The notes under the pieces are model-generated. The model saw nothing but the letters and a program-made list of their open reading frames with translations, did no database searches and was not told the DNA's origin. A program made the position numbers and the translations under genes. 64,000 nucleotides of DNA from Dehalococcoidia bacterium (GTDB lineage Bacteria; Chloroflexota; Dehalococcoidia; Lucifugimonadales; Lucifugimonadaceae): assembly GCA_034423055.1 (NCBI GenBank), contig DAOUJE010000044.1:6328-70327 (forward strand). Reading direction: 5' to 3'. Shown here piece by piece: positions 1 to 59,690 of this stretch (positions are counted from its first letter, which is position 1; each line of letters starts with the position of its first letter).

Positions 1-330
1 GCGTCGCACTCACCTCGCCAAGTCCGCTACCGAACGCGATCCTCGGGTTTACTCCGACGCTGGACCAAAGCGCGGTTAAAGCACAATCGAATGCGTAGCT
101 GGCGGATGCTATCGTAGCCGGACTTTTGCCTGCATCGGACGATTCGGCTTGACCTCTCAGCACCTCTATCAAGGAATCTCCATGGACTTCCTGATGCACG
201 ACCTCGCACCGATCGAAAATCGAACGCACTGCTGGTTCAGTTTCGTAAAGCGCTTTGGCGATGTCGAGACGCGGTAATCCATCGCCGAGGTAGATGGATG
301 CCACTCTCCTAGCCACGCGTTCGGTGCCAT
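1..330 (-). other. PKS module 2 AT-like region with degenerate active-site motifs (truncated by window edge)
   Basis: Where an AT begins, the sequence reads IYLGDGLP instead of F-x-G-Q-G-x-Q. The nucleophile elbow reads AFGSGLGEVSA (GSGLGE at 15-32) instead of GHSxGE. Confidence 0.55.
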
Positions 331-3300: not shown

Positions 3301-6300
3301 AATCCGGTTCGGTTTTCTTGAGCACGTCGAGTTCTAAGATGGCGTAGTCCACGTCCGGACGGAGGGCTGCCATCTCGGCTTCGGTTAGGATGTCTCTCCG
3401 CGCCAACTCGACGAATCTGCCGCCGTGCGCAAGGCAAGAAAGGCTGGCGTCAATAAATCCCTCGCTTGTCAAGCTGTTGAGAACGACATCGATCCCCGCC
3501 CCGCCAGTCACTTCGAGGATTTCGTTCCCGAAGTCAGTTGTGCGACTGTCGAAGATATGTGTCACGCCCATCGAGCGCAGGTAATCGCGTTTCGGCGCGC
3601 TCGCGGTGGCAAACACCTCCGCTCCTGCGGCTTGTGCTAACTGGATAGCTGCTAGGCCTACTCCACCGGCACCTGCATGTATAAGTACGCGATCGCCCTT
3701 TTCAAGGCCCGAATATCGATATGACAGAGCAGCTGAAACGTAAGCGCTAGGTATAGTGGCGAGTGCGGAAACTGACATCCCATTTGGAGCGGGGGCCACC
3801 AACTCCTCGTGGGTGATCATCTCTGGGGCAAAGGCGCCGAATCCGAGTCCCACCACGCGGTCTCCAACCGCCATGCTGGAAACGTCGGAACCTACATCGA
3901 CAACATGGCCGCACAGCTCCCTGCCCAGATCGCCCTCTTCAATAAATCCCATCGAACGGAACACGTCCCAGAAGTTGAGGCCTGTCGCCTCGACAGCGAC
4001 GCGGACCTCTCTGGGTTCAAGCGGACGCGGTGGCAACCGTTTAATCGCGGGGCGGTAAAAATCACCGTCGGGGTCTGGGGCCAATACCCAGTCGGCACCC
4101 TCCGGCAGGTTAAGGTGCGCGTCTCCTTCTTCGTGCCTTACTAGACGCGCCGCATAGCGTTGTCTTGAACGGTACGCGATGTGGTTTTCCCCGTCTGGAA
4201 ACAGTAGTTCATCCACGATTTCAGTCGACTCGCCAGTGGCGTTGGGGTCCAAGTCGACCATCCGAGGCCGCAGGTGAGATGCTTCCAGCGCCAAAACCTT
4301 GCCTAGCCCCCAAAGAATCGAACCGGCAAGCTCTCCTGAACTCTCGCGTTCCAAAACCTGCGCGCCGCGCGTTATAAACCACATGCCTTTGGCCGGGGTC
4401 GAATTGGACTCAACCAATGCCTGTGCCAGCGCAAGCGCGCTCTCACCTGCATGTTTCATGTCTTGGATAATCTCTTCGGTACCCGCATGATTGCCATGAC
4501 CATCGAGGGCATGCAGGTGCACCACACCGCACAACGGAATGTCTTGCGGCAGATCATCGATAAGTGATCGCCAACTTTCGCGACTGCCCACATCTAACAC
4601 AGTTTCGGTGGCCGTCGGGTTGGCTGGCATCTGCCTGCCGTTTTGATGTTCTTCATTCCTCGCAATCACCACCGTCTGGTTTTGCTCAGACAATTTGTCT
4701 GCTAGCTGTTCTGCCACACCACCGTGGTCGGCTACCAATATCCACACCCCAGTAGATTCCGTTACTCGCTCCGGCCCCTGGGCCACGATCACACCCTTGT
4801 CCAACATCTCGCGTGTAAATGAATCGTCAACGCCTAACACTTCGGAGTCCGCGAACCCAGCATCTTTCAGTGCGCGTCGCCATACCGAAGGACCGGCAAG
4901 TGCGTGGTGCGGGCGGTAGTCGTCGGCGAAACGCCACCAGCCATCGAGCTGACCAAACGTAAGATCCATCCAACCTAGCCCTCTCAGGTTTTCGAGTGCC
5001 ACTAGATGTCCCGACGGAGCCATGAGAGCTAGACAGTGACCCAACGTTTCCTCAAGATAGCGGGTGGCATGCAAAACGTTTGAGGCGATCAGAAGGTCGT
5101 AGCCGTGTGAATCAAATCCGTGTGCGATCGGATCTTTTTCGATGTCGAGCGGCCGGTATGCGATGCTGTCGTTGCCGAAACGGGCTTCGGCTTCGGCGAA
5201 GAATCCCGCCGAGATGTCGGTGTATGTGTAGTCGAACTGTTCGGCTGGAAGTTCCGGCAATACGGACGCCGTTGCCGAACCCGTTCCGGCACCTACCTCC
5301 AGCACACGGAGTCGTCGTCCCTCTGGCAACTCGGCTACCAGCTTGCGAACTGCATCCGCGAGCATTTGGTTCGCAGCCTTTGCCACAGGTGCTTTCAGAT
5401 AAAGATCGGCCGCAGTGGGTTCTCCGCTGCTGAACAAAAGCGTTAGCGGATCCGCTTGTCCGCGTAGCACATCGGCAAGCGCCGCGCCGGATCTTCTAAA
5501 GAGTCCTACCTCTGTCAAACCGTGCGAATACGTCTCCGACATCTGTATGTGGAAAGCTTCTGGATTCGCCGGCAACTCCCCAGGCAACGTGTCCTCAGGG
5601 CTCAAAAGGACCACAAAACCGTCATCCCTCTCATCCAACACTCCAGATGCCGCCAACATTTCGAGCAATCTGCGGAAGAGGCGTTTATGCTCCTCCAGAA
5701 CGCCCAAACTCTTCCTCAGCTCTTCGGCGTCGAGCACATCGCCCGAACGACGCTGCCATCCTAGCTTCTCAAGCGTGTGCAAGGCGTATGACCGCGACCA
5801 ATGCTCCAAATCTGTCAAGAGCGCGTTCCTGCTGATCGGATCGACATCTGCCTCTGTGAGATAGTCTGCGAACAACCCGGAGCCAGCGGCGACATCCGAC
5901 GGGCTTGGGAAGAAATCTGCAGGGACTATCCCCGGCTCGAGTGAGCGATCACGCCATACCACTTGGTAGAGGAGATCATCTACTTCTTTGACAGCCGACA
6001 GCAGTGCTTCGGGGGTGGCTCGTTTAACCGTGTATCCACTAAATCCACCGATCAACCCACCATTGATGTCGTAGATGTGCAATTCACCGCTAAGGACTTC
6101 GGGATGCTCAACGGACTGGGTAGATTCGCTCATCCGGACGTGACACATCAATCGATCCGGAAGTCGGTTTGACAACCACATTCGCTCCCAGCCGAAGGGG
6201 AGATACGTCGGTTCATCAGCCGCACTGGACATGTTACGTGCAAGCCCAACGACCTGGAAACAGCCATCAAGTAATAAAGGATGAACGTCCAACTCGTTTC

Positions 6301-9300
6301 GTCCCAAGAGTTCCGGCAACGTTACTTCACCCAACGCTTCACCCTCACCGACCCACGCGTTAACTACCGTGCGGAACAACGGACCGAGATCGATCCCGGT
6401 GTCCAACTTGGCCCGGTAGTAATCCGAAACATCCGCAGGTGACAGCCGAGTTTTCAGCTTCTCAAGGTCGATCCGTTCCCCGATTTCCAGCGGCGGTGCG
6501 GCGGTGGACGCACAACCTTCGACGTGCATCGTCCAACTGCCATCACTGCCTTTGCTGAAGACCTGTACGCCGCGTGCGGATGCCTGTCCGGAGTCGTCAA
6601 GCACAACCTGAACAGCCCGCCCCTCTTGGTCGGAATCATTGGCGGAGGCCTTTTCAGAAAAGACTAGTGGGTTGTGTAGTTGCATATCCTCAAGCACAAA
6701 GCAACCACCCTCTTCGGATGATGCCGTGACCGCCATCGCACCATACAAAGCGCCAGGTGCGACGATACGCCCGAAGACCCGGTGGTCGTTCAACCAAACG
6801 GGATCGAGAGGCAACACTTCGGTCTCATAGGAGATCTCGCCGCGGGCTCCTTCATGCCGGACTCCGAGCAATGGGTGGCCTGAAACCGCTCTCCGTTGTT
6901 TGCCTTGCTCAACCCAATGACGCTCCCGTTGGAACGGGTACATCGGAAGGGAAATCTTACGACGACTCTCTCCTGCGAATAGACCTTCAAATGAGATATC
7001 TAGACCGGCTTTGTAGGCGTCTGCAACGGCATCAACGAAACTGGTCTCAGCATCGGACGACGACTCGTCCCTCGGTGGCCTGCGCAGGCTGGCTATCGAT
7101 TCCGGTGCTTCGGACACGTTGGAACCTGCGACCGACTCTGGCCAGCAAAGGGTAGCCATCGGACCGAGCACCGAGTGCGGGCCTATCTCCACCACCAGAT
7201 CCACTCCGAGTTCCGCCATCGTTTTGACGCCGCTCGCGAACGCAACCGCTTCGCGTGCATGTCGCCTCCAGTACGCGCCGTCTAGGTTCATACCAGATTC
7301 AACCGCTTTACCCGTAAGATTGCTGACAAATGTCACCGACGGTGACCCGATCGATACACCCTCCAAAAACGATTCCAACGCGTCGAGCGATGGTTCAACG
7401 AGAGCGCTGTGGAACGCCTTGCTCGTGTTTAGCCTGCGTGCCCTGATGCCTTGGGATTCAGAGTGTTCGACGATCCGTTCGATGTCTGCGACTGGGCCGC
7501 TGACCACTTGGTGCGCGCCGTTATACCCTGCAATGCTCAACCCAACGCCAGCCGAGTCGGCGTTCAGTTGTTCAACTGTCGATTCGACTTCTGCCGCTGG
7601 CGCGAAAACGGCAGCCATCGTTCCGGTTTCTGTTGCCGATAAGAGCGTGCCCCGCACTGCCGCGAATCGCATTCCGTCTTCAAGACTGAAAACACCGGCA
7701 GTGTGTGCCGCTGCGATCTCTCCTACGCTGTGGCCCAAGACAACGCTCGGGCGGATGCCGACGCTCTCCCACAAATCCGTCAACGCGCAACCCAGCGCGT
7801 ACAACGCTGGCTGCTCCCACGCCGTATCGCTCAGATCCCCTTTCGCATCGTTCCTACCCCACATCACATCCAGGAGCGATTCGCCTCGTTCCTCCCTGAA
7901 CACCTTCTCACAACGGTCCATGACGGCACGGAATACCGGTTCGCTGTCATATAGGGCTTGCCCCATCCCTAACCATTGACTTCCTTGGCCCGTGTACAAA
8001 AACGCTATCCGGGTTGGTGACCCGGGTTCCGAAATCGGCGAATCTGCAGCCAACTCGCCGAGACGATCCTTCAATGAATCTGCATCGCTGAATACCACGC
8101 CCGATCGGCATTCGAAATGGGCCCTGCCCACTGCCGCCGTCCACGCCATGTCTGATAGCAATGCGTCGGCAGCGTCATCAGAGAGGTGGTCTCCCGCCAA
8201 CTTTTCGTCGAGCCAGGCAGTGTAACGCTTCGCTAGGTCCCGCACAGCACCTTCTGACTTGCCTGACAACGGTAGGAAACGATCTTGACGGCCACGGGTT
8301 GCGTTTTCCGACTTGGTGACCTGACCGTTCGGACTGGAATAGCTTTCCAACACGATATGGGCGTTCGTGCCGGAAATCCCGAACGAGTTGACTCCCGCTA
8401 TTCGTGGACTCCCGTCTCGTCGCGGCCAGTCCATATTCTCCGTCGTTACCTGCAACGGCAGGTTGTCCCAATCGAGTCTCGGATTAGGGTCGTTGAAATG
8501 TAAGTGTTTGGGAATGAAGCCTCGTTCGACCGCCATCACCGCTTTGATCAACCCCGCAATCCCGGCTGCTGATTCCAAATGCCCGACGTTGGTCTTGACC
8601 GATCCGATGAGGAGCGGCCGATCTGATTCCCGCCCTTCTCCGTAGACATTCGCCACCGCTTCAACCTCGATCGGGTCGCCAACCGCCGTACCTGTTCCGT
8701 GTGCTTCTAGATAATCGACCTCTGACGGCGGAATACCAGCATCAGCATGAGCAGTTTGGATCAACTTCTCCATCGCTGGAGCGTACGGCACGGTCAAACC
8801 TGCGCTCGCTCCGCCATGGTTGACGGCCGAGCCTCGAATCACCGCCCATATGCGATCACCGTCCGCTTCGGCGTCGCTCAATCGCTTCAAGACGACAACC
8901 CCGCAGCCTTCACCCCGCACGTAGCCGTCGGCAGAAGCATCAAATGTCTTGCACTGCCCTTCCGGGGACAACATCATGGCTTCGGCACGCAGCTCGTATA
9001 TGCGACCGTTGAGTATCGCTTGGACACCGCCGGCTAGCGCGAGATCGGCTTTCCCGTGCTGGAGATCGCTTACTGCGTCGTGAACCGCGACAAGTGCCGA
9101 CGCGCATGCGGCGTCGACTGCTTTGGCGGGACCGTTCAGACCAAGGACGAACGATACGCGACCCGCTGTCCCATTGAGGTTGGTGCCGCTAAGCGCATAG
9201 AGGCTACCCGCGGCTTCGGAGGGTCTGGTTGAATCCAGGACCAACATTCGGTATTCGTCATTGCTGATGCCGGAATAGACGCCGGTTCGGCTCTCTTTGA

Positions 9301-9712
9301 GCCGCGTCGGGTCAATACCTGCGTCCTCAAGCGCGAGCCAACAGGATTCCAGCATCATGCGCTGCTGAGGGTCGAGCAAATCAGCTTCCACCGGCGAGAT
9401 GCGGAAGAATCCAGCGTCGAACATGTCGATGTCATCGACGAACGCGCCGTAGCGACATGCATCGTTATCGACCGGAGCATCGCGGAAAATCTCCCCCATC
9501 CGCCCGTTTCCCGGACCCGCGAAACCCTCAGTCACGGCGTTCCCACCATCCATCAAGAGCCGCCAGAATGAATCTAGATCTTCCGCCCCGGGAAACTTGC
9601 ACGCCATCCCGACCACAGCAATAGATTCCCTCGATACATCTTCGAGCATCGCTTTACCGTTATATCCCGTTTCAGTCGACACAACAGCGCCTCGAGTATT
9701 GCCAGTTTCCAT
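1..9712 (-). CDS. Type I modular polyketide synthase, 5' part (about 3237 codons); 3' end lies beyond window start
   Basis: Minus-strand frame starts at ATG 9710-9712 (GGAG 4 nt upstream) and has no stop down to position 1, so the closed-ORF track omits it. My translation shows KS (DAACAS, EAHGTGT, KTNVGHLE), AT (FLYTGQGSQ, GHSVGE, KAFHS), DH (HRVFGRIVAPG), cMT (VLEVGAGTGS), ER (HAGAGGVGLAA), KR (VTGGLGGIG), ACP (LGMDSL), a second KS (DAACASS, EAHATGS, KSNLGHTE), then an AT-like region. Confidence 0.9.
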   Translation of the reverse strand, partial: METGNTRGAVVSTETGYNGKAMLEDVSRESIAVVGMACKFPGAEDLDSFWRLLMDGGNAVTEGFAGPGNGRMGEIFRDAPVDNDACRYGAFVDDIDMFDAGFFRISPVEADLLDPQQRMMLESCWLALEDAGIDPTRLKESRTGVYSGISNDEYRMLVLDSTRPSEAAGSLYALSGTNLNGTAGRVSFVLGLNGPAKAVDAACASALVAVHDAVSDLQHGKADLALAGGVQAILNGRIYELRAEAMMLSPEGQCKTFDASADGYVRGEGCGVVVLKRLSDAEADGDRIWAVIRGSAVNHGGASAGLTVPYAPAMEKLIQTAHADAGIPPSEVDYLEAHGTGTAVGDPIEVEAVANVYGEGRESDRPLLIGSVKTNVGHLESAAGIAGLIKAVMAVERGFIPKHLHFNDPNPRLDWDNLPLQVTTENMDWPRRDGSPRIAGVNSFGISGTNAHIVLESYSSPNGQVTKSENATRGRQDRFLPLSGKSEGAVRDLAKRYTAWLDEKLAGDHLSDDAADALLSDMAWTAAVGRAHFECRSGVVFSDADSLKDRLGELAADSPISEPGSPTRIAFLYTGQGSQWLGMGQALYDSEPVFRAVMDRCEKVFREERGESLLDVMWGRNDAKGDLSDTAWEQPALYALGCALTDLWESVGIRPSVVLGHSVGEIAAAHTAGVFSLEDGMRFAAVRGTLLSATETGTMAAVFAPAAEVESTVEQLNADSAGVGLSIAGYNGAHQVVSGPVADIERIVEHSESQGIRARRLNTSKAFHSALVEPSLDALESFLEGVSIGSPSVTFVSNLTGKAVESGMNLDGAYWRRHAREAVAFASGVKTMAELGVDLVVEIGPHSVLGPMATLCWPESVAGSNVSEAPESIASLRRPPRDESSSDAETSFVDAVADAYKAGLDISFEGLFAGESRRKISLPMYPFQRERHWVEQGKQRRAVSGHPLLGVRHEGARGEISYETEVLPLDPVWLNDHRVFGRIVAPGALYGAMAVTASSEEGGCFVLEDMQLHNPLVFSEKASANDSDQEGRAVQVVLDDSGQASARGVQVFSKGSDGSWTMHVEGCASTAAPPLEIGERIDLEKLKTRLSPADVSDYYRAKLDTGIDLGPLFRTVVNAWVGEGEALGEVTLPELLGRNELDVHPLLLDGCFQVVGLARNMSSAADEPTYLPFGWERMWLSNRLPDRLMCHVRMSESTQSVEHPEVLSGELHIYDINGGLIGGFSGYTVKRATPEALLSAVKEVDDLLYQVVWRDRSLEPGIVPADFFPSPSDVAAGSGLFADYLTEADVDPISRNALLTDLEHWSRSYALHTLEKLGWQRRSGDVLDAEELRKSLGVLEEHKRLFRRLLEMLAASGVLDERDDGFVVLLSPEDTLPGELPANPEAFHIQMSETYSHGLTEVGLFRRSGAALADVLRGQADPLTLLFSSGEPTAADLYLKAPVAKAANQMLADAVRKLVAELPEGRRLRVLEVGAGTGSATASVLPELPAEQFDYTYTDISAGFFAEAEARFGNDSIAYRPLDIEKDPIAHGFDSHGYDLLIASNVLHATRYLEETLGHCLALMAPSGHLVALENLRGLGWMDLTFGQLDGWWRFADDYRPHHALAGPSVWRRALKDAGFADSEVLGVDDSFTREMLDKGVIVAQGPERVTESTGVWILVADHGGVAEQLADKLSEQNQTVVIARNEEHQNGRQMPANPTATETVLDVGSRESWRSLIDDLPQDIPLCGVVHLHALDGHGNHAGTEEIIQDMKHAGESALALAQALVESNSTPAKGMWFITRGAQVLERESSGELAGSILWGLGKVLALEASHLRPRMVDLDPNATGESTEIVDELLFPDGENHIAYRSRQRYAARLVRHEEGDAHLNLPEGADWVLAPDPDGDFYRPAIKRLPPRPLEPREVRVAVEATGLNFWDVFRSMGFIEEGDLGRELCGHVVDVGSDVSSMAVGDRVVGLGFGAFAPEMITHEELVAPAPNGMSVSALATIPSAYVSAALSYRYSGLEKGDRVLIHAGAGGVGLAAIQLAQAAGAEVFATASAPKRDYLRSMGVTHIFDSRTTDFGNEILEVTGGAGIDVVLNSLTSEGFIDASLSCLAHGGRFVELARRDILTEAEMAALRPDVDYAILELDVLKKTEPDFVGEVLREVMEQITNGEVAPLVHSRWPLSEAGTALGFMRSARHIGKIVLTPQPLAKGGLRQDRAYLVTGGLGGIGLAVADWLAEHGAGTIVLNGRRKPGSEAEEAIQQLRNRGVNVEVELADVTDTSAIDAMLERIDANMPPLGGVIHSVGVLSDAALTNQTWASFEQVLWPKIIGAWHLHKATLDRDLDLFILFSSRVGVMGNPGQSNHAAANAFLDQLAGHRRALGLPGQSIAWGAWSEIGEAAEQRERIESRRAALGGRWFTPQQGIRALEQLVKEDTTTSVVMSMDWSVFEEAVAEPSSLVDELLSSTSSDGKADDVSSEDLISQLRGAQASEREDVLVSFVQQELQAVLRLTSSPSPTVGFFDLGMDSLMAVELRNRLNRAFDGEYVASNTIVFDYPNVSEMARHLAEELGEIGEEKQVFSIAVASTPEPSVDLRRNEDGIAIVGMAGRFPGADNLSQFWEMLESGTDAVTDGRRDTGSWEGAVGDPNADDLAYRRGAFLSDIDLFDSRFFRISPIEARLMDPRQRMLLETSWQALEDAGIDPGSLRGSRTGVYAGVGGSEYRDLIEASGRTDSYLGTTGSVTVGRVAFALGLEGPALPVDAACASSLASIHQAVVSLQHGEVDMALAGGVNLALSRPVSRFMMDVGMLSPTGVCSPFDAGADGYVRGEACGMVVLKRLSDAEADGDRIWAIIRGSGVNQNGASAGLTVPNGQAQERVMRETLAQAGIAPSEVDYLEAHATGSQLGDPIELNAAASVYSEGREPNRPLLVGSVKSNLGHTEWAAGVTALMKTVLSMNEGVIPKHLHFEDPNPHVEWDQLPVKVTEDKTEWPNGTDRAPIAGVNAFGMSGTNAHVLVEGYREASAVDTSNGLAKLPVGSPRNISISSNGVPQDSETNNGQETLPRPVRLLPLSGRSVGALRDIAIRYVDLLEAQEDAASDNWLSDLAWTASIGRSHFEHRAGVVFNDVESLVRGLNHVVDNSIDDDDGTERVARRVASIYLGDGLPRLDIAKALYETEPAVRSIFDRCEVVHQEVHGDSLIEVLRGQAESSDAGKSPATIASASYAFDCALTALWSSVGVNPRIAFGSGLGEVSAT
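715..1975 (-). other. PKS module 2 ketosynthase domain (approximate bounds)
   Basis: IAIVGMAGRFPGA ... VDAACASS (Cys codon 1475-1477) ... EAHATGSQLGDPIE ... KSNLGHTEWAAG ... GTNAHVLVEGY. Confidence 0.85.
2080..2290 (-). other. PKS acyl carrier protein domain (approximate bounds)
   Basis: FFDLGMDSLMAVELRNRL; phosphopantetheine Ser codon at 2183-2185. Confidence 0.8.
2560..3115 (-). other. PKS ketoreductase catalytic subdomain (approximate bounds)
   Basis: AYLVTGGLGGIGLAVADWL (Rossmann motif about 3079-3100) ... LFSSRVGVMGNPGQSNHAAANAFLD. Confidence 0.75.
3165..4060 (-). other. PKS enoylreductase domain (approximate bounds)
   Basis: MDR-type sequence GLNFWDV ... GDRVLIHAGAGGVGLAAIQLAQAAGAEVFATAS (about 3600-3680) ... 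HIGKIVL. Confidence 0.75.
4900..5560 (-). other. PKS C-methyltransferase domain (approximate bounds)
   Basis: SAM-binding motif VLEVGAGTGS at about 5275-5305, followed by DISAGF...YDLLIASNVLHAT, typical of PKS cMT domains. Confidence 0.7.
6050..6900 (-). other. PKS dehydratase domain (approximate bounds)
   Basis: GHPLLG ... LNDHRVFGRIVAPGALY, i.e. the HxxxGxxxxP motif (His codon 6782-6784). Confidence 0.7.
7100..8010 (-). other. PKS module 1 acyltransferase domain, malonyl-type (approximate bounds)
   Basis: FLYTGQGSQWLGMG at about 7960-8000. GHSVGE at 7718-7735 (Ser codon 7727-7729). KAFHS near 7406-7420, resembling the HAFH malonyl-specificity motif. Confidence 0.8.
8342..9619 (-). other. 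PKS module 1 ketosynthase domain (approximate bounds)
   Basis: IAVVGMACKFPG ... VDAACAS (Cys codon 9104-9106) ... EAHGTGT ... KTNVGHLE ... GTNAHIVLE. Confidence 0.85.
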
Positions 9713-9881
9713 AACGCTCCGTTTCACACGAAAAGGGGTTTCAGTAAACCTGTCTATCAAAGATTAGCATTCACATGTTCGAACCGTTCGGCTAGGCGAT
9801 CTCCTCTTGATGATCAGAGCGTGCGGAGATGTAAGCCTCTCATCACTTGTAAACTGTCTTGATAAGTAAGGGAGTTAATCC

Positions 9882-22627: not shown

Positions 22628-24703
22628 TTAACAGTTAACGCCTCTCAACTGGACTGCGAGCGAATCAACATCGGTGACCGGCAATTCGCACGCGTAGTTC
22701 CGACAAACGTACGCGGTTGGCAACCCATCGATCATCTTGCGACCTTCGAAAAGCGGCATCGAGGCATTGGCTTCGTCGCCGCCCGCCGGATCCAGATGGG
22801 CAATGATGCGGTCAGGATTAAAACCGGTTCTTGCTTCGCGTAGCATCGCGGTCGTTGACGAATGCTCTTTTTCGCCGACAATCACCACCTGTTTTACGGG
22901 GTTGGCGTAAAACTCCGCCGCCTGCAGCCACCATGAAAACGCGGATGGCGCGCGTTCCATCAATTCGCGGACCGTCCTCAGGTTGGCTGCCCCGACCCTT
23001 TCCAGATCCACGTTTCCGGTGAATTCGGCACAACGGAGCAACGCCATCGATGCCGCCGATCCTCCACTCGGTTGTGCGTTGTCGAACGTGTCGCGAGGCC
23101 TTACGATCAACGCCTCCTGATCGGATCCGGTGTCGTAAAACACTGAATCCGCAGGATGCCAGAAAAGTTCTATCATCGCATCGCACAACTCTTCTGCCTG
23201 TTCCAACCACCTCAGATCGAATGTCGCTTCGTAGAGATGTGTCAAAGCATCCGCGAGATACGCGTAATCCTCCAAGAAACCTGGAATCGTTGCGACCGAA
23301 TCCGATTCAGCCTTACAACTACGCATCAAACGACCGTCTTCACGAACCAACCGGTCGAAAACGAACTCCGCGTTCTTGACCGCGACATCGATCCAGTCAT
23401 CGCGGCCAAACACCGCTCCGGCCTCTGTAAACGCGCGCATCGCCAGTGCGTTCCATGATGTGATGACCTTATCGTCGGTCATCGGGGGGACGCGATTGAG
23501 CCGTTCAGCGTAGAGCAACCGTTTCGCCTCGCCGATCTTAGACATCAACTCCTCAACCGACAAACCGAGTTCGGTTGCGACCGATTCGTCAGATCGATGC
23601 ATGTTGAGGATGTTGTGCCCCTCGAAGTTGCCGAAACGCGTCACATCCCAATACATCGTCGCTACGCGTCCGAGCTCGCTACCCAACACCTTCTCGATCT
23701 CTGTTGGTTGCCAAACGAAAAACTTGCCTTCCTCGCCCTCTGAGTCAGCATCGGTCGCGGAGTAAAACGCGCCTGTCTGACGGTGCCGCATCTCGCGATC
23801 CAAGTAGTTGAGCGTCTCTTCCACCACCTTTGCAAAGTCAGGATTCATACTCCGCTGCCAAGCGTGGAGATACAGGCTAGCCAACTGGGCGTTGTCATAC
23901 AGCATCTTCTCGAAGTGCGGTACTAACCAGACGGAGTCGACTGAGTATCTGTGGAACCCGCCTCCAATCTGATCGTAGATTCCGCCACGCGCCATCTTGG
24001 TCAGCGTCAGATCGACGAATTCCTGCACCAGATCATTGCCCTGCAATTTGGAGTGTGTCAGCAGAAACTCGTACAGCATCGGCTGTGGGAATTTCGGCTG
24101 CAGGCCGATACCGCCATTCTGCGAATCGAATTCCGGCGCCAAATGACGATAAGCCGAGTGGAACATCGATTGTGCGATCGGCTCGATGCTCATCCGGGCC
24201 CGAGATTGGGACGAAATCGCATTCACCACGCGCGACGCGCTCGCTGCAATTTCTCCCCGTCGATCCCGATACGCCTCCGCAACCGCAGTCAACACACGCG
24301 GAAACGACGGCATTCCGCCCCGATCCTCGCTCGGAAAGTATGTCCCTCCGTAAAACGGCGCCCCGTCTGGCGACAAAAACACCGACATCGGCCATCCGCC
24401 ATGGCCTGTCATCGACTGCACTGCCGACATATAGATCGAGTCGATGTCTGGTCGTTCCTCGCGATCGACCTTGATGTTGACGAATAGCTCGTTCATCAAC
24501 GCCGCGATCTCCTCGTTTTCGAACGACTCTCGCTCCATGACGTGGCACCAGTGGCACGCGGAGTAACCGACGCTGAGGAAAATGGGCTTGTCGAGTTCTT
24601 TGGCGAGCGTGAGTGCTTCATCGCCCCAGGGGTACCAATCGACCGGATTGTCCTTGTGTTGAAGTAGATACGGGGATGTCTCTTGCGCTAATCGATTCGC
24701 CAC
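22628..24703 (-). CDS. Thioredoxin domain-containing protein (DUF255/YyaL-like, N-acylglucosamine 2-epimerase-fold C-terminus)
   Basis: [22 protein letters not shown]...[21 protein letters not shown]. Confidence 0.8.
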
Positions 24704-24713
24704 ATCAGTCCTT

Positions 24714-26264
24714 TCAAGCGCCTACGAGTTCGATGGTGCCGACGGTTCCAGTATCGACATCGAGTCTGCGAACACTGTGGTTGTTAGTGTCGGCGACATA
24801 AACAGTTCCGTCGCGATACGAAATACCGGCCGGTTCATCGAAGCTCGCGTTGAGAGCATCTCCATCCGCAGTGCCCTGAGTTCCGTCACCAGCGACCGTG
24901 GTTACCCGAAGCGTGCTCAAATCCATGCGTTTGATCTTGTGGTTGTAGGAATCGGCGATATAGACCGCGCCGGGCGCCCACGTCACATCCTGCGGATGCT
25001 GCAACACCGCGTCTTTTCCGATGCCGTCGTGGTCACCGAAATCGAACAGCCCAGTACCAGTCAGCGTCACGACCCGTCCACCCGAGCCGATCTTTGCCAC
25101 CCTGATCGCGCTGGTTTCGGAATCGGCGAAAAAGAGGTTGTTGCCGTCGAGCGCCAACCCATACGGTTGGGCAAGCAATGCCTCCAAACGTTCACCGTCA
25201 ACGATATTTTCGGCACCGGTACCAGCGAACGGCTCGATCATCCCAGCGCTGACATCCATCTGCCAAAGCTGGTGTGCACCCGCCATTGCGATGTAGAGGA
25301 TTCCGTCGGCATATTCAAGGTCGTACGGAGAGTTGAGAGGAAAAGCTATAGCTTCGCCGCCAGCGTGACGGATGAGAGATTGCTCTCCCGTACCCGCGAT
25401 TACTGACACCATCCCGGATGCCATGTCCACGCGTTGGATTGTGTGGGTTCCAGCATCAGCCACAAAAAGCACTTCGCCATCGAGAGCCATGCCTTGAGGG
25501 TTGTCGAACAAAGGCGCATTGAAACTCCATTCGCTTCCGATGGGGTTCAACACACCGGGCGGAGGGTCGAACGACTCGAGTGCTAACGGGCTTTCGCCGT
25601 TACCGATGATGTTGCTGACTTTGCCGTCTTCGGTTGCGACGATGACGCGGTGGTGGTTGGAATCTGCGATGTAAAGGTTGCCGTCGTCCGCCGCGAGTAT
25701 CTTGCCCGGAAACGATAGCGCACCATGGCTTCCCGCTTCAGAACCGTATTCGAACGGAACAGGATCGCGGTTCAGCAGTCCAGAGCCGTCGAACTCATCG
25801 ACCATCGCGGTAAGCACGCGGTCCATCGCATCTAGCTGGAATTCGCCCTCGTGCCTCCCAATCACCTTGCCTTCCGGATCGATAAACATCAGCGTGGGCC
25901 ATGCCCGTGCGGCAAATGCGGACATCACGCGCAACTCGACATCGTTCACGACGGGATGGTTGACGTTATAACGGCTTGCCGCGGCGCGGACATTTTCGGT
26001 TGCTCGTTCGGTATCGAACTTTGCCGAGTGAATCCCGATCACGAACAGTTCGCCCGTATACTTCTTCTCCAGCTTCCGCAACTGCGGAAGTATATGCATG
26101 CAGTTAATTCAACAGTAGGTCCAAAAATCGAGAATAACGATCTTGCCGCGCAGATCGGACAGCTTTATCGGTTTGCTCGAGTTGATCCATTCGAGACCAT
26201 CAGGGAACTCTGGGGCGCGCACCTTTCCGGCGTAAGAGGGTGCAGTGGGTTGCGATGCGGCCAT
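24714..26264 (-). CDS. Thioredoxin-like / NHL-repeat protein (NHLRC2-like), putative selenoprotein with in-frame UGA
   Basis: Track ORFs 26109..26318 and 24714..26099 are the same frame, joined by TGA ATT AAC TGC. The read-through gives [22 protein letters not shown]. The start ATG at 26262-26264 has GGAG 8 nt upstream. The C-terminal part has repeated NHL-like blocks ([65 protein letters not shown]). Confidence 0.7.
26073..26090 (-). promoter_or_regulatory. Candidate bacterial SECIS hairpin
   Basis: mRNA sequence CUUCCGC-AGUU-GCGGAAG: perfect 7-bp stem, 4-nt loop containing GU, starting 18 nt after the UGA. Confidence 0.5.
26109..26111 (-). other. In-frame UGA proposed to encode selenocysteine (codon 52)
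   Basis: It sits at the first position of the xINC redox motif (C-[TGA]-I-N-C). selB is in the window and a hairpin lies 18 nt downstream. Confidence 0.6.
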
Positions 26265-26349
26265 GAATAGCGCTCCGATACGGTTAGTGGTTCGATGGAT
26301 ATAGCGCAATTGTCGCACGATCCGCGTTTATGTTTCGCATAATTGACTT

Positions 26350-28400: not shown

Positions 28401-29543
28401 CTAGAGCAGTGCTGGCACACGCGATTTTTCTCTCGGTCGATCGACCAGCCATTCGGGTGCACCGAACAGATCGTCAATGACATCATCTGCCGGTTCAGCG
28501 ACAAGGGGTACAGATGACGCGGTACCGACTAGATTGAAACTCTGTTCCGCATCTGTCCGAGTCGGCGATTCGGCATTGACCTTCTCCGCTCTTGGGCGCA
28601 TCCCGGCGAGGATGCTGATACGGAGTCGATTTGCTTTGCTTGAATCGCCGTTGGGGATGAAGGATGTCGACAACACCGCCTTTTGAGACAACTCATTCTG
28701 CACGACAGCAATTGCAGAATTGAGAGCTTTGATCGACATGTCGCGCGGCCCAGCGACGATCACGCTAACAAAATCTGCGTCGTTCAGATCCAGCCCTGAA
28801 GTGATCGGATGCTTGATAGCCTCGCGCGTTACCTTGCGGTATTCGGAAACATCCTCGCTAACCGCGTATGAGATCAGCGTCTCACCGCCGCATTTGATCG
28901 CATCCAGCAGCTCATGAGCGGTATTCAGTGTCCCGAACGATTCGGCATTCGACGCTGAGAGCACATTCATCACCACGCGAGCCTTCGCAGCCGAGAGTTC
29001 GGATGCCAAGTCACCAGCGATCGACGCGTTAGACAATGCGTTGTCGGCCTCAATCAGTGCAAGAGAGCAACCGGTGTTTCGAACGCGCTGCAACGCTGTG
29101 CGAGCGGTGTTCGATCGCGTACGACCTTCAAACGCGAATGGCATCGTCAAAATTGCCAGAACCGACGCACCTGTCGACATCGCGGTCCGAAGCACCGCGG
29201 GCAAGATTTCCACGGTTGTCGTCCCGCCTAAGCCAGCCATGACGAACACGATCGGCGCTTTGCCGATCAACGTCTTAAGTCGGAACAGGTCGTTTTTGTC
29301 GACATATTCGTAGTCCTCGATCCCTTCGCCCTCGCGAGTGAACATCGGATAACCGATCGAAATCCGTCGGCCGGTGTTGACTGCGCGTAGATCGTCCATC
29401 TCGCGATCCACAGCGATGACGTCGTCAGGATTTCCCAAAACTTTCGACAGTTCGGACGCAGTTCTGGCTCCCGCGCCGCCAACTCCAATAATCGCGAAAT
29501 CCTTGGATGCGGTGGCGTTTCGTCCATCTCGTATGATCGTCAT
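28401..29543 (-). CDS. Divergent FtsZ/tubulin-family paralogue
   Basis: FAIIGVGGAGARTA (G-box 1), IVFVMAGLGGTTTVEILP in place of [30 protein letters not shown] in place of NLDFAD. ATG at 29543 preceded by GGAGAG; the track ORF extends to a TTG at 29597. Confidence 0.7.
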   Translation of the reverse strand: MTIIRDGRNATASKDFAIIGVGGAGARTASELSKVLGNPDDVIAVDREMDDLRAVNTGRRISIGYPMFTREGEGIEDYEYVDKNDLFRLKTLIGKAPIVFVMAGLGGTTTVEILPAVLRTAMSTGASVLAILTMPFAFEGRTRSNTARTALQRVRNTGCSLALIEADNALSNASIAGDLASELSAAKARVVMNVLSASNAESFGTLNTAHELLDAIKCGGETLISYAVSEDVSEYRKVTREAIKHPITSGLDLNDADFVSVIVAGPRDMSIKALNSAIAVVQNELSQKAVLSTSFIPNGDSSKANRLRISILAGMRPRAEKVNAESPTRTDAEQSFNLVGTASSVPLVAEPADDVIDDLFGAPEWLVDRPREKSRVPALL

Positions 29544-29668
29544 GTTGCTCTCCAAGTAATGGGCATCGGGGGAATGCCTGTTGAAACTTCTGTTCAATTA
29601 TTAGGATAGCACACTGGTTCTAGTAAAATGCAAGCGCGAACACGATATTTTTCAGACATTTGTGAAAG

Positions 29669-36545: not shown

Positions 36546-37796
36546 TTGCCACACCCTCCCCTCAAATTTTCCGATACCAACGTTGTCGCCCGCGCTGGCA
36601 ACGATTTAAGCGAGCCCATCGCTGTCTACGTACACATCCCATTTTGCCTTTCAAAATGCAACTATTGCGACTTCAACACATATGAAGGCATCGAATCTCT
36701 GATGCCGTCGTTCGTTGATGCGTTGTCGTCTGAGATTGGCATTTGGGGCAAACGGCTCGATCGTCCTAACGTATCAACCGTTTTCTTCGGTGGCGGAACA
36801 CCTTCTTACCTGCCTGTCGAATCGATTTTCTTGCTTTCAGAACGTCTTCGCGAAGCAACTAACATCGCACCTGGTGCAGAAATGACCTTGGAAGCCAACC
36901 CCGATGACGTAGACGCTGAAAAGGCGGAAGCGTGGTTGGAGGCAGGCTTCAACCGCATCAGTATCGGGGTTCAATCATTTGACGACCAGATTCTTCACGC
37001 TCTTTCACGTCGACATGATGCGGGTCAAGCAACATCGGCGGTCGAGACTGCACGATCCGCCGGGTTAGAAAACATCAGCATCGACTTGATGTTCGGTTTG
37101 CCAAATCAATCACTAGCTGCCTGGAAACGCTCACTGAAACGCGCGATCGAACTTGAGACAGATCATCTCTCATTGTACGGTCTGCAAATCGAACTGGGGA
37201 CACCGTTGCAAAGAGATGTCCTCCGTGGCATCGTGCCAACACCGGACGACGACTTGGCGGCTGACATGTATGAGATGGCGATGGACGAATTGAGACAAGC
37301 CGGATATGGACACTACGAGATATCCAACTGGGCAAAACCTGGGTTCCGATCGCGCCATAATCTCGCGTACTGGTTGAACCAGCCGTATCTCGGCGTAGGG
37401 CCGGGAGCACATTCTTCGATGATGGGCCGACGCTTCTCAAATATGAAGTCGCCACGTAGATACATCTCTGCCGTTGGATCCGCCGAATACCTAGACGAAA
37501 CGGATTCCATGCCGATCGAAGAAGGTGTAATCGCCGTCGATTTCGTCGAAGTTACATCCTTTGAGATGGCGATGTCGGAAACGATGATGCTCGGTATGAG
37601 GTTGTCCGACGGAATGACGAAGTCAGGGTTCGAGCGTCGCTTCGGAATTTCGATGGACGATGTCTACGGGCGGGAGATATCCACGCTTGTCTCAACAGGG
37701 TTGATCGAGGACGATGGTGACCGCATTGTCCTCACACGGCAAGGAAAGCTGCTCGGTAATAACGTATTCGAATCTTTCATCCTTGCAGACGATTGA
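36546..37796 (+). CDS. hemW: Radical SAM family heme chaperone HemW / oxygen-independent coproporphyrinogen oxidase-like
   Basis: VYVHIPFCLSKCNYCDFNTY (CxxxCxxC), FFGGGTPS. TTG start. Confidence 0.8.
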   Translation: MPHPPLKFSDTNVVARAGNDLSEPIAVYVHIPFCLSKCNYCDFNTYEGIESLMPSFVDALSSEIGIWGKRLDRPNVSTVFFGGGTPSYLPVESIFLLSERLREATNIAPGAEMTLEANPDDVDAEKAEAWLEAGFNRISIGVQSFDDQILHALSRRHDAGQATSAVETARSAGLENISIDLMFGLPNQSLAAWKRSLKRAIELETDHLSLYGLQIELGTPLQRDVLRGIVPTPDDDLAADMYEMAMDELRQAGYGHYEISNWAKPGFRSRHNLAYWLNQPYLGVGPGAHSSMMGRRFSNMKSPRRYISAVGSAEYLDETDSMPIEEGVIAVDFVEVTSFEMAMSETMMLGMRLSDGMTKSGFERRFGISMDDVYGREISTLVSTGLIEDDGDRIVLTRQGKLLGNNVFESFILADD

Positions 37797-37800
37797 AACG

Positions 37801-38652
37801 ATGACAGACTTGGACAAACAGAGCACATACCAAACCTCACGCGACGGCGTCGACTTCCCGGAGCATCTCGATGAAGCGGTCGAAATCTGGGACGAAATCT
37901 CCAGTTGGTGGGACGACAAGATCGGTGATGGAAACACTGCTCAGGATTATCTGATCGAGCCGACACAGGAACGCCTACTCGCACTGGAGCGTGGCTCCAA
38001 GGTGCTTGACATCGCTTGTGGTGCTGGTCGTTTCACGCGACGCATGGCCGATCGTGGTGCGAAAATCACTGCCATCGACCATTCAAGCGTGTTCATCGAG
38101 AGGGCGCGGCAACGTTCGAAAGGCTACGAAGATCGGATCGAATTCTTGATCGCCAATGCTGCCGACCGCGACGCATTGATGGCGTTGCTCAGCGCACCAT
38201 TCGATGCCGCTGTCTGCACGATGGGGATCATGGACATGGCCGTCATCACGCCGCTGGCGGAGACGCTTCCGCGGTTGTTGAAACCAGGCGGAAGATTCGT
38301 CTTCAGCATTTTGCATCCGGTATTCAACTCGGACGGCACGCGCAACACGTTAGAGCGTGAATTCACGGCCTACGGCGTCGAAGAAAGATTCGCCGTATGG
38401 GTGCCAGACTACCTGAAAACACGAGCTTATCGCGGTATCGGAATCGAAGGTCAGTCGCGACCACATTGGTACTTTCATCGACCAATCAGCGAGTTGTTGC
38501 GAGTGTTCTTGAACCAAGGGTTCGCTCTAACGGGATTCGAGGAACCGCGCTTTCCTATCGAAGCTTATTCAGAAGCCAAATCGCCACTATCGAGCGTGTT
38601 CTGGCGCGAATTTCCACTCGTGATGGTCGTCCGTCTCGATTTGCTTAACTAA
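37801..38652 (+). CDS. Class I SAM-dependent methyltransferase
   Basis: VLDIACGAGRFTRRMA. The ATG at 37801 lies just after the hemW stop; the track ORF start at 37714 overlaps hemW. Confidence 0.75.
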   Translation: MTDLDKQSTYQTSRDGVDFPEHLDEAVEIWDEISSWWDDKIGDGNTAQDYLIEPTQERLLALERGSKVLDIACGAGRFTRRMADRGAKITAIDHSSVFIERARQRSKGYEDRIEFLIANAADRDALMALLSAPFDAAVCTMGIMDMAVITPLAETLPRLLKPGGRFVFSILHPVFNSDGTRNTLEREFTAYGVEERFAVWVPDYLKTRAYRGIGIEGQSRPHWYFHRPISELLRVFLNQGFALTGFEEPRFPIEAYSEAKSPLSSVFWREFPLVMVVRLDLLN

Positions 38653-38763: not shown

Positions 38764-40617
38764 ATGTTCGTCGCAGGAACCGCAGGACACGTAGATCACG
38801 GCAAGTCTACCCTCATCGAGAAGCTGACCGGAATCGACCCGGATCGCCTGCGCGCCGAAAAAGCTCGAGGGATGACCATCGAACTCGGGTTTGCATGGCT
38901 CGAACTCGACGACGGAAGTGAAGTCAGCATTGTTGATGTGCCCGGGCATGAGCGCTTCGTCAAAACGATGCTCATGGGCGCGGGAGGTTTCGATCTCGCG
39001 CTCTTGGTCGTAGCCGGTGACGAAGGCCCGATGCCGCAGACACGCGAGCATTTGGCGATATTGGATCTGCTTGAAGTTAGCGATGGGATCGTGGTAATTA
39101 CAAAATCTGATCTCGCCGACGCCGAGTTGATCGAGCTGATCGAGATCGAAATATCGGAAATTCTGGAAGGCACGTCGCTCGAAGGCTCGCCAATGGTTGC
39201 GGTGTCAGCTGAGACTGGTGTCGGCTTGGATGATCTGCGCGGCATGATTACTGACTTTGCTCGAAACAAACCGGCGCGGCCCATTAACGAACGTCCAAGG
39301 CTCTTCATCGACCGAGCATTCAGCGTAGCCGGTTTTGGTGCGGTTGTGACTGGAACTCTTGATGGCGGGCAACTGAAGGTCGGCGACGAAGTCGCACTGC
39401 TTCCGTCTGGCGAAACCTGCCGCATCCGTGGATTGCAGAGCCACAAATCTCAGATCGATATCGCGGTTCCGCGCACACGAGTAGCGGTCAGCATCAGCGG
39501 TATTTCGCACACCGAGATTGAGCGCGGCGAAGCTCTAGTCAAGCGCGGCCAGTTTGATACCACGACGGTTTTCGACGCTTCGCTGAGGACGATTTCTGAT
39601 GCCAAACGTCCTGTAAAACACAATCATCACGTCACCCTATACGGCGGCACATGGGAAGAACCCGCGACAGTCCGATTGCTCTCTCACGACGAGTTGAAGG
39701 CTGGCGAAACGGGCTGGGCTCAGATCAAACTGAGCAACCCTCGCCCGATAATCAAAGGCGACCGTTTCGTTATCCGTGACAGCAACGACACGCTAGGCGG
39801 CGGTGTTGCACTGATCACCAGCGCTCCTCGCCACCGACGCAATGATCCATCGGTCATCGAGCATTTGCACGTTTTGTCCGAAGGCCGCCCAAAGGATGTC
39901 ATCGTCCACGCGCTAGACCAACTCGTAGTTGCCAACTGCATTCAAATTGCCGAAGCCGCGCACATGCTGACCAGCGATGTAGAAGCGGAGTTGTCCGAAT
40001 TAACCGGTATGGAAGCCTTGATCCGTCTAACGGCAGGCGTGACACCTCTGTACATAACAAAATCAAACCAAGATTCGTTGCGGGCCCAAACGAGAGATGC
40101 GCTAACCGATTACCACAACAGATATCCCTTACGCCGCGGGATGCCGCGGCAAGAACTGCGGAATCGGCTACGGCTCGATTCGAGCGGGTTCGACGCTGTA
40201 GTCGATAACATCGTGAATGATGGTTTGATGTCGCAAGACGGCACCACTGTCAGGATGGCGGACCATGAAGTCACGTTCACTCCCACTCAGACGCAGGAAT
40301 CGGATCGTTTTTTGGCTGTTCTGCGTGAGCATCGCTATTCTCCTCCCGCTTGGAACAAGATCGATGCCGAGTTGCTAAGCGCCCTTATCGACCGTCGCGA
40401 GGTTGTCAGCGCCGGGCCGGAGGTTGTCTTCGCCGCCGAGGTTTTCGACGAGATGCGAGACAAGATCATTGACTACTGCCAGATTAACGACGAGGTCTCT
40501 ATCAACGACGTTCGGGAGTTGCTCGGGACCAGTAGGAAATACTCGCTCGCGCTCTTGGAGCAGTTGGATCGCGACAACGTGACCATGCGCGTCGGCGACA
40601 TGAGGGTGTTGAGGTGA
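38764..40617 (+). CDS. selB: Selenocysteine-specific translation elongation factor
   Basis: MFVAGTAGHVDHGKSTLIEKLTGIDPDRLRAEKARGMTIELGF, DVPGHERF, ITKSD. The 617-aa length includes the C-terminal winged-helix extension typical of bacterial SelB. Confidence 0.85.
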   Translation: MFVAGTAGHVDHGKSTLIEKLTGIDPDRLRAEKARGMTIELGFAWLELDDGSEVSIVDVPGHERFVKTMLMGAGGFDLALLVVAGDEGPMPQTREHLAILDLLEVSDGIVVITKSDLADAELIELIEIEISEILEGTSLEGSPMVAVSAETGVGLDDLRGMITDFARNKPARPINERPRLFIDRAFSVAGFGAVVTGTLDGGQLKVGDEVALLPSGETCRIRGLQSHKSQIDIAVPRTRVAVSISGISHTEIERGEALVKRGQFDTTTVFDASLRTISDAKRPVKHNHHVTLYGGTWEEPATVRLLSHDELKAGETGWAQIKLSNPRPIIKGDRFVIRDSNDTLGGGVALITSAPRHRRNDPSVIEHLHVLSEGRPKDVIVHALDQLVVANCIQIAEAAHMLTSDVEAELSELTGMEALIRLTAGVTPLYITKSNQDSLRAQTRDALTDYHNRYPLRRGMPRQELRNRLRLDSSGFDAVVDNIVNDGLMSQDGTTVRMADHEVTFTPTQTQESDRFLAVLREHRYSPPAWNKIDAELLSALIDRREVVSAGPEVVFAAEVFDEMRDKIIDYCQINDEVSINDVRELLGTSRKYSLALLEQLDRDNVTMRVGDMRVLR

Positions 40618-41093
40618 TGGCATCGTCCGAAAAACTCACGTTGACCTTGCACGATCCGCCGTTCAAGGTTTCTAACCTCTCATCGCTGTTCCGGTCACTG
40701 CAAGCCGCGGTACGTGAAACCGCAGCCGCGGGCGAGCCAGTCGAGAGTTTGTTTTCGAACCAGCAAGGGCCTTTTCTGGTAGCGGATGTCGCTAACGGTG
40801 CCGATGGGAGGCTGACGATGTCGCTCTGGTTCGTCGACCGCGATAACCAACCTCTGGCGGATCGATCAGAGGAGACCTTCGTCAGCGCGATCACAGAGTT
40901 TGAACGCACGATACTGCGCGGTTCGCAACACACGTTTTGGGGTGCGCCAGCTTACCAATCAGAAATCCACGAAGATGATTCCCGCATGTTGCGGTTCATC
41001 GCGGTTTTGCGCGCCTTCCGCTCGGCGACGATTTCTTATGGTGACCGCAGCGTTGTTTTACGCGATGGCCTGTTCGCTTCCGAACGAGTCTGA
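40617..41093 (+). CDS. Hypothetical protein, translationally coupled to selB
   Basis: The ATG overlaps the selB TGA (TGATG). 158 aa; no recognisable motif. Confidence 0.5.
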   Translation: MASSEKLTLTLHDPPFKVSNLSSLFRSLQAAVRETAAAGEPVESLFSNQQGPFLVADVANGADGRLTMSLWFVDRDNQPLADRSEETFVSAITEFERTILRGSQHTFWGAPAYQSEIHEDDSRMLRFIAVLRAFRSATISYGDRSVVLRDGLFASERV

Positions 41094-58493: not shown

Positions 58494-59690
58494 TTACCGG
58501 TCCTTGATAAAACGCTGATACTCGCGTTCTATCGACCGATGCGAAGGCGGGACATTCAAATTGCTACTGTCTTCAAGGGCGGCTCTGGCTTTTTGCGCCC
58601 GTTCTTCACCGTACGCGTCAACACCCGAAATATCTTCGAATCCGGTTGCGATGATGGTGATCTTCAACTCGTTCTCCATCCGGAGGTCTTGAGTCGTGCC
58701 AAAAATGATCTCCGCGTCAGGATGGACCTGCTCTTTCACGGTCTCCGAGATCTTTCGAACTTCCGCCATCATCAAATCGGGACCGCTAGTGATGTTGAAC
58801 AGTACTCCCGTAGCACCGTCGATCTTGACTTCCAGCAAGGGTGAACTGAGGGCCGACGTTATCGCGGCGTTCGTGCGATCAATTCCGTTTCCCTTGCCGA
58901 TCGCCATCCACGCGGGACCAGCGTCCCGCATCACCGTCCTAAGGTCCGCGAAATCTAAATTGATCTCGCCAGGAAGCAACAGCAAGTCGGTGATCGACTG
59001 GATGCCCTGCCGCAAAACCTCGTCCGCCATCCGAAACGCTACCTCAACCGATGTGTCAGGCGCCGATACTAGAAGCAACCGTTCGTTCGGAATCACGATC
59101 ATCGTATCGACTTCTTCGGCCAGGCGGTTCAAACCCTCAGCAGCTTGTTGGTCCCGCTGATACCCCTCGAAGGGAAACGGTTTAGTGACCACGCCGATCG
59201 TCAAGCAACCAAGTTCACGCTTAGCGATGTTCGCCACTACCGGCGCACCGCCGGTGCCAGTGCCACCACCCATCCCGGCAGCTATGAAAACCAGATCCGC
59301 GCCACTTAAAACATCGCGTATCTCTTCGCGGCTATCAAAGAAACACTCTCGTCCGATCTGAGGATTCCCGCCGACACCGAGTCCGCCGGCGATACGATCG
59401 CCGACGCGCAACCGTATCGACGCTTCAGTGTACGCGAGCGCTTGTGCATCAGTGTTCGCTGCGATGTACTCGACGCTCGGTATCCGACTTCGGTACATGC
59501 GTGTAAGCGCGTTTGAGCCGCCGCCGCCAACGCCTACAACCTTGATGTTGACCGACGGATTGCGCCTGCGCCTGATTGACGTTGATAACGTGGTTGTCAA
59601 CTTGAACTGATGCGCCCTTCGACACGCGAGCAACCACTCAATAAGCCTACGTGCTAATAGCGTAGCGACACGCGCTTCGTAGCCGCTCAA
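58494..59690 (-). CDS. ftsZ: Cell division protein FtsZ (canonical)
   Basis: [57 protein letters not shown]. Start uncertain: the longest ORF uses TTG at 59690, and a TTG at 59600 would give a more typical N-terminus. Confidence 0.9.

Follow-up and report, generated by a model that had tools for sequence, protein, structure and literature searches.

A TGA-interrupted SOQ1/NHLRC2-like gene of SAR202-type Dehalococcoidia predicted to encode a selenoprotein

One gene interrupted by an in-frame TGA

In a 64,000-nucleotide stretch of DNA from a Dehalococcoidia bacterium (contig DAOUJE010000044.1; hereafter the window), we examined a minus-strand gene that is interrupted by an in-frame TGA and that had been proposed, from the letters alone, to encode a selenoprotein. 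Two open reading frames (ORFs), 26109..26318 and 24714..26099, share a common frame and, exactly as the original prediction described, are separated only by TGA(26111-26109)-ATT-AAC-TGC. This internal TGA is the sole in-frame interruption between an ATG at 26264-26262, which direct reading of the sequence places behind a Shine-Dalgarno-like GGAG (26273..26276, minus strand) with an 8-nt spacer, and a terminal TGA at 24716-24714. The gene callers applied to the source contig split the gene at this point into a 51-amino-acid ORF, beginning at the same ATG, and a 461-amino-acid ORF. The two called ORFs are one gene, wrongly divided. Joined, they form a complete putative selenoprotein gene (24714..26264, minus strand) of 516 codons plus the TGA stop, as judged from the joined translation, Pfam matches and a full-length alignment to PDB structures. 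The UGA at codon 52 (26109..26111, minus strand) is the predicted selenocysteine (Sec) codon, at the N-terminal position of a CxxC motif that reads C51-U52-I53-N54-C55.

When searched with Cys substituted for the TGA, the joined protein scored above the Pfam cutoffs of Thioredoxin_8, AhpC-TSA and Redoxin, at residues 28-144, and above that of the NHL repeats. The best-scoring Pfam model for the thioredoxin (Trx) domain was PF13905 (51.7 bits, residues 40-134), with PF00578 at 46.5 bits; no NCBIfam model reached its cutoff for the joined protein. The Trx-like domain (Trx_8/TlpA/DipZ-like) spans residues ~28-144 (25833..26183, minus strand), cis-Pro motif WPT included, according to Pfam and to alignment with SOQ1, DipZ and ResA. 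It is followed by an NHL-repeat beta-propeller at residues ~172-512 (24729..25751, minus strand; Pfam NHL E=7e-27), and residues 182-511 match the isolated propeller structures 6g7w (E=2e-50) and 7djm (E=2e-55), in agreement with the proposal that the remainder of the protein is an NHL-like propeller.

The best match in the PDB was the lumenal region of Arabidopsis SOQ1 (7djj, E=7.8e-105, query residues 16-508), and the second was human NHLRC2 (6gc1, E=6.4e-95, query residues 15-511). A likeness to the CCINC motif of NHLRC2-type proteins, part of the original prediction, was borne out by the 6gc1 alignment, and SOQ1 turned out to be closer still. Both proteins resemble the window protein end to end in their combination of a Trx-like domain with an NHL propeller, in the D-F-W-T-Y-C-x-I-N-C-M-H context and in WPT, which is conserved in the alignment with SOQ1. 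The two alignments are continuous over the TGA, which corresponds to the second Cys of DFWTYC-C-INCMH: the CC(I/V)NC motif of NHLRC2 and SOQ1 is met here as C-U-I-N-C, between DFWTY and MH flanks that are the same as in SOQ1, and the difference at the motif itself is Sec for the second Cys.

The window protein also differs from these relatives in what it lacks. The beta-stranded C-terminal domain with a Cys pair, found in plant and animal members, is absent; the protein stops at residue 516, and its alignment reaches residue 503 of the 667 in the SOQ1 construct. In SOQ1 this domain has reported methionine sulfoxide reductase (Msr) activity. Unlike SOQ1 and NHLRC2, the window protein has no HAD domain or membrane anchor, nor does it have a signal-peptide-like N-terminus, and it is predicted to be cytoplasmic. 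Because few bacterial NHLRC2 homologues show the mammalian architecture (PMC6107167), the C-terminal domain is not defining for bacterial members. Judged by these alignments, the window protein is a bacterial SOQ1/NHLRC2 orthologue minus the C-terminal domain. Two Cys-type relatives of ~675 amino acids, P0103 and P0111 (L092:1078-3108), carry a membrane anchor at the N-terminus and, at the C-terminus, an extension that contains a Cys pair (YYCEAKKESLCYF), an arrangement that resembles SOQ1/NHLRC2 and is unlike that of the window protein.

Among the best 120 protein matches, 109 start just past the TGA, at MH[IV]LPQL or the following Met, and their coverage of the query is limited to ~89%. The remaining 11 are full-length, and all carry CCINC in the context DFWT[YFS]CCINCMH. 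In these 11, as in SOQ1 and NHLRC2, a Cys falls precisely on the TGA in the alignment, with conservation in both flanks, so that the TGA lies, as proposed, at the N-terminal redox Cys of a CxxC-type motif. None of the homologues proved to be genuinely split into two genes; the apparent splits are gene-caller artefacts at the conserved TGA.

A scan using one genome per species returned 80 loci, all from Dehalococcoidia, SAR202 or Chloroflexota. Every one of these species-level genomes, the cultured Ca. Lucifugimonas marina JH545 among them, carries TGA at the homologous codon, with an upstream frame that is open and conserved (identity 49-92%). A metagenome scan with a DNA pattern for W-T-Y-C-UGA-I-N-C gave at least 120 contigs, 118 of them usable, and all of the usable copies (at least 118; GC 43-73%) are open on both sides of the UGA. 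Coding conservation on either side was found at 80/80 genome loci and 118/118 usable metagenome loci. With TGA as the internal codon in 81/81 related genes, the observation of a single TGA-interrupted gene is far beyond chance. The terminal stops of the 80 related genes are mixed (TGA 42, TAG 27, TAA 11), and because the same genes also end in TGA, UGA is not reassigned in these genomes. Nine related genes have Ala, Val or Leu in place of Met after the motif and then no Met for 21-73 residues, which argues against a separate downstream gene.

The Sec-type gene is essentially universal in the SAR202-type Dehalococcoidia examined and is also present in several other lineages. The original prediction had supposed a new or rarely seen selenoprotein family; the supposed rarity does not hold, and the question of novelty is taken up below. 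Sec-type copies belonging to other sequence groups occur among the metagenome loci L094-L213 (for example L105, L129, L111 and L116), over the same GC range of 43-73%. The copy at L111 has a signal-peptide-like N-terminus, and the nearest named Cys-type relatives of one non-SAR202 Sec-type group are from Nitrospinae and Acidobacteria.

A conserved hairpin just past the TGA

A perfect hairpin had been noted 18 nt past the TGA, and we found it there, at 26073..26090 on the minus strand. This predicted bacterial selenocysteine insertion sequence (SECIS) has a 7-bp stem, CUUCCGC/GCGGAAG, closed by the loop AGUU; it encodes L-P-Q-L-R-K and has a fold energy of -10.4 kcal/mol. From an alignment of 35 sequences, RNAalifold predicted exactly this helix and no other. 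Hairpin cells in the alignment are paired in 99.2% of cases, versus 32-70% after a shift of the 3' arm by 1-3 columns, and 11 cells are changed on both sides, versus 2.8±1.3 in shuffles, with none of 500 shuffles attaining the observed value. Pooled over 135 unique sequences, pair 1 is C-G in 70, U-A in 43 and U-G in 11, and pair 3 is U-A in 117, C-G in 5 and G-C in 4.

Codon choice within the hairpin is equally constrained. Pro CCG, Leu UUG and Arg CGG each occur in 81/81 genes, compared with usages of 0.42, 0.22 and 0.24 elsewhere in the same genes, and the codons adjoining the hairpin drift normally. Cys-type genes served as a control: the helix is missing in six of seven that encode nearly the same peptide (0 to -6.1 kcal/mol, 1-5 of the 7 pairs), and the synonymous sites in the hairpin are frozen only where the TGA is present. 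The seventh Cys-type gene, L081:383-1876, has TGC at the Sec position together with a perfect SAR202-type hairpin, and it joins a Sec clade in a rough neighbor-joining tree; it appears to be a recent Sec-to-Cys change that left a fossil SECIS behind. In 38 of the metagenome copies (of at least 118) this hairpin is absent at the homologous register and other hairpins lie at the same distance, examples being CCGGAGCU-GGA-GGCUCUGG and GCUCCC-CGUGCU-GGGAGC.

Bacterial SECIS elements are in general stem-loops that lie just past the UGA, inside the coding sequence, and have a small, G-containing apical loop (PMC1088965). The arrangement in the window resembles the E. coli fdhF-type system in its in-frame UGA, in a stem-loop directly downstream within the coding sequence, in a small loop with G followed by U, and in the presence of a dedicated SelB with C-terminal winged-helix domains. 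Compared with the E. coli fdhF element, the window hairpin is minimal: a perfect 7-bp helix with a 4-nt loop and no bulged U, 18 nt past the UGA. In the comparative tests (RNAalifold, covariation, frozen codons and the Cys-type control) the hairpin, as far as sequence can tell, behaves as a SECIS.

Selenocysteine machinery and competing readings

The gene for the Sec-specific elongation factor, selB, lies where it had been reported, at 38764..40617 on the plus strand, 12.6 kb from the TGA-interrupted gene; its product scores 330 bits against TIGR00475 (cutoff 242) and contains SelB winged-helix domains 2 and 3. A selB gene and a TGA-type gene share a contig in at least 22 cases, and selB is present also in one Cys-type genome. 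BSepDB credits two Dehalococcoidia genomes with 49 and 46 selenoprotein genes (PMC13326102), counts that support a working machinery in the lineage and are not a test on this genome. No convincing second selenoprotein emerged among the TGA-interrupted frames in the window, or from a search for a TGA with a similar hairpin in the window and the collected related sequence.

The surroundings of selB also show some recurrent features. The stop codon of selB overlaps the start of a 159-amino-acid ORF (40614-41093, plus strand) without a Pfam match. An equally placed ORF in L090, where SelB is only 56% identical, shares 47% identity with it (E=3e-45). By its sequence and position, the ORF in the window looks like a conserved, uncharacterised one that is translationally coupled to selB. 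A HemN-like radical SAM gene (36546-37796, plus strand, in the window) lies just upstream of selB in 4/4 genomes examined (the window, L088, L089 and L090), and in the window a methyltransferase gene (37714-38652) stands between the two. At L089:845-3656, two tandem genes for DUF3179, a listed selenoprotein family, lie 6-9 kb upstream of selB.

We are highly confident that this locus is one Sec-encoding gene recoded through SelB and a SECIS, and the sequence comparisons make actual insertion of Sec at UGA codon 52 very probable. Several results weigh against this reading. Rfam gave no SECIS match, either over the whole window at gathering thresholds, where the sole match was one tRNA-Ser, or over 25950-26200 at E<=10. 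The 81-nt region folds no better than shuffled sequence (z=-0.07), and for this reason the case for the hairpin is a comparative rather than a thermodynamic one. In five related genes the loop is AUUU, which lacks the guanosine usual in bacterial SECIS loops. Finally, none of selA, selD and tRNA-Sec turned up in the 64-kb window, the adjoining 10 kb on its right, the surroundings of three other selB genes or 24 related loci, which together cover a small part of any genome.

The failure to find selA, selD and tRNA-Sec in this sequence would also fit a reading in which near-cognate decoding or local recoding places a standard amino acid (Trp, Cys or Gly, for example) at the UGA, without selenium. 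We consider this very unlikely, given that UGA is the normal terminator of this gene and of 42/80 orthologues, that selB is intact, encodes winged-helix domains of the SECIS-binding kind and occurs on the same contigs as the gene, that the UGA stands in place of a redox Cys ahead of a conserved hairpin at bacterial SECIS spacing, and that the lineage is reported to be rich in selenoproteins (PMC13326102). Two real genes, or termination and re-initiation, would yield a 51-residue peptide up to the TGA and a 461-residue protein from the ATG four codons on. All gene callers annotate the gene in this way, and an ATG closely follows the TGA in most members, but this too is extremely unlikely. The internal stop is TGA in 81/81 genes and never TAA or TAG, although TAA or TAG ends 38/80 of the same genes; the nine members described above have no nearby Met at which to restart; and the break would cut the thioredoxin fold within its active-site motif, in a region over which homologues, two crystal structures among them, are continuous. 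Nor would two genes account for hairpin synonymous sites that are frozen only when the TGA is present. The window does derive from a metagenome scaffold (ENA, 142,844 bp), and the TGA could in principle be a sequencing or assembly error, or mark a pseudogene copy in a metagenome-assembled genome. The chance of this is practically negligible: an identical protein is encoded on three independent contigs, the same TGA recurs in 80 other genomes (complete long-read chromosomes and a cultured isolate among them) and on at least 118 metagenome contigs, and the frame has no further disruptions.

Proposed function, known families and neighbouring genes

Under the favoured reading of a SelB/SECIS-recoded gene, UGA codon 52 would be read as selenocysteine in translation, with SelB, loaded with Sec-tRNA(Sec), binding the 7-bp/AGUU hairpin 18 nt downstream and bringing Sec to the ribosome. 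Recoding of this kind is the ordinary bacterial route of Sec insertion. The predicted product has 516 residues and no signal peptide, and would consist of a Trx-like domain with C51-U52-I53-N54-C55 followed by the NHL beta-propeller. The Sec position corresponds to SOQ1 Cys431, the N-terminal residue of the C431-C434 pair. In SOQ1 this pair, the second and third Cys of CCINC, works as a redox couple (midpoint potential -274 mV) and passes electrons to the Cys pair of the C-terminal domain, the site of methionine sulfoxide reductase activity (bioRxiv 10.1101/2024.11.01.621559). The motif of NHLRC2 sits in the cleft that the Trx domain forms with the propeller (PMC6107167).

By analogy, the selenolate of U52 may attack an oxidised sulfur (a disulfide, sulfenic acid or similar) of a substrate held in the Trx/propeller cleft, and a selenenylsulfide with Cys55 could then resolve the intermediate. 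Because the window protein has no C-terminal domain, the acceptor would have to be a separate molecule. We think reductase-type chemistry at U52/C55 somewhat more probable than other kinds, with a good deal less assurance than Sec insertion itself. Two points count against such a function: insulin reduction assays were negative for human NHLRC2 and for SOQ1 (PMC6107167; bioRxiv 10.1101/2024.11.01.621559), and the Msr activity of SOQ1 is assigned to the C-terminal domain, which the window protein lacks.

Naturally occurring Sec/Cys pairs are well established as a mark of catalytic redox cysteines. The occurrence of Sec at this residue therefore argues for redox catalysis in SOQ1/NHLRC2, in line with the newer work on SOQ1, and suggests that the Cys at this position in the poorly understood NHLRC2/SOQ1 proteins, among them human NHLRC2, which is linked to FINCA disease, is a working redox catalyst. 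A broader proposal is offered tentatively, as one that may well prove wrong: the repeated interchange of Sec and Cys at the C431-equivalent position, in several bacterial lineages each with its own SECIS, might mark a family-wide catalytic redox nucleophile, human NHLRC2 included, and the bacterial protein might be a stand-alone (seleno)thiol reductase acting on propeller-docked substrates, in SAR202 together with a SPATA20-like DUF255 protein. If true, this would be a functional link between two conserved, biochemically poorly understood redox proteins.

The mechanism invoked here is the usual one, and no kind of bacterial selenoprotein is commoner than the thioredoxin-fold UxxC proteins. Two known families of that kind come closest. 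The Prx-like thiol:disulfide oxidoreductase selenoproteins (PF00578, UxxC; Zhang/Gladyshev) share with the window protein a thioredoxin fold, a UxxC motif in which Sec is the attacking residue, Cys homologues that are widespread, and a hairpin shortly after the UGA, and the window protein passes the PF00578 threshold. Published members differ in being small, single-domain proteins with W-U-P-x-C and no NHL propeller; this family was ruled out by an E value of 5.9 against the Sargasso Sea example and by the different motif context. The thiol-disulfide isomerase-like selenoprotein (PF13905, UxxC; Sargasso Sea) has the same Pfam domain as the Trx domain in the window and likewise UxxC, whereas the Sargasso sequences are AT-rich, carry DW-U-TWC and lack an NHL part; it was ruled out by the motif and by the lack of any alignment at E<=100. 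No sequence could be matched to a review entry named 'Redoxin family protein' (MBA3499694.1 / HEU0032618.1).

As for novelty, the original prediction stands to the extent that the Sec form is absent from reviews: neither a 2022 table of 87 prokaryotic selenoprotein families nor a 2026 review has an NHL, propeller, SOQ1 or NHLRC2 entry. Neither the Sargasso selenoprotein set nor the available part of the GOS sets contains the strings FWTYC, INCMH or CUINC. We found no Sec form of the NHLRC2/SOQ1 family in the literature searched, and BSepDB, built by tblastn from known families, could list the gene under a generic name. Every public record of the Sec-type protein that we examined is truncated and none is flagged as a selenoprotein; the names given are alkyl hydroperoxide reductase, YvrE lactonase, thioredoxin-like and hypothetical. 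This truncation removes from public databases the active site of a protein that is widespread in SAR202-type Dehalococcoidia.

The interest of the gene lies in its widespread Sec form, in its systematic misannotation and in its implication for the catalytic role of CCINC in SOQ1/NHLRC2. It also offers a tractable bacterial system for substrate trapping, Ca. Lucifugimonas marina being in culture, and a data set on SECIS evolution, with one hairpin kept across a class, other hairpins in other lineages and one apparent fossil SECIS.

Immediately downstream lies a gene for a DUF255/Thioredox_DsbH protein (YyaL/SPATA20-like; 22628..24703, minus strand; Pfam E=2e-77) with a CHWC motif, whose GTG start at 24703 is 10 nt past the stop of the Sec-type gene. 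The two genes are probably co-transcribed. A DUF255 gene is present downstream on the same strand at 52/85 loci, 4 Cys-type loci included, and absent at 33/85; the corresponding count is 15/42 for informative SAR202-type metagenome loci and 0/9 for informative loci of another Sec-type group. The idea of a two-gene redox operon with DUF255 holds for the window as regards the 10-nt adjacency and the CHWC motif, and fails as a property of the whole family, being lineage-specific (52/85 versus 0/9). DUF255 as an obligate operon partner is weakened by its absence at 33/85 loci and at all nine of the other Sec-type group, and the DUF255 protein is a candidate partner in this lineage only.

Elsewhere in the window, one open frame of over 3,254 codons, with a ketosynthase-like N-terminal part (type I polyketide synthase-like), occupies positions 1-9763 (minus strand) and continues beyond the left edge, which is why no long ORF is listed there. 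A stretch of ~50 kb contains three genes of the FtsZ/tubulin family, at 28401-29597 and 58494-59690 (both minus strand) and, just past the right edge, at L091:16770-17888.

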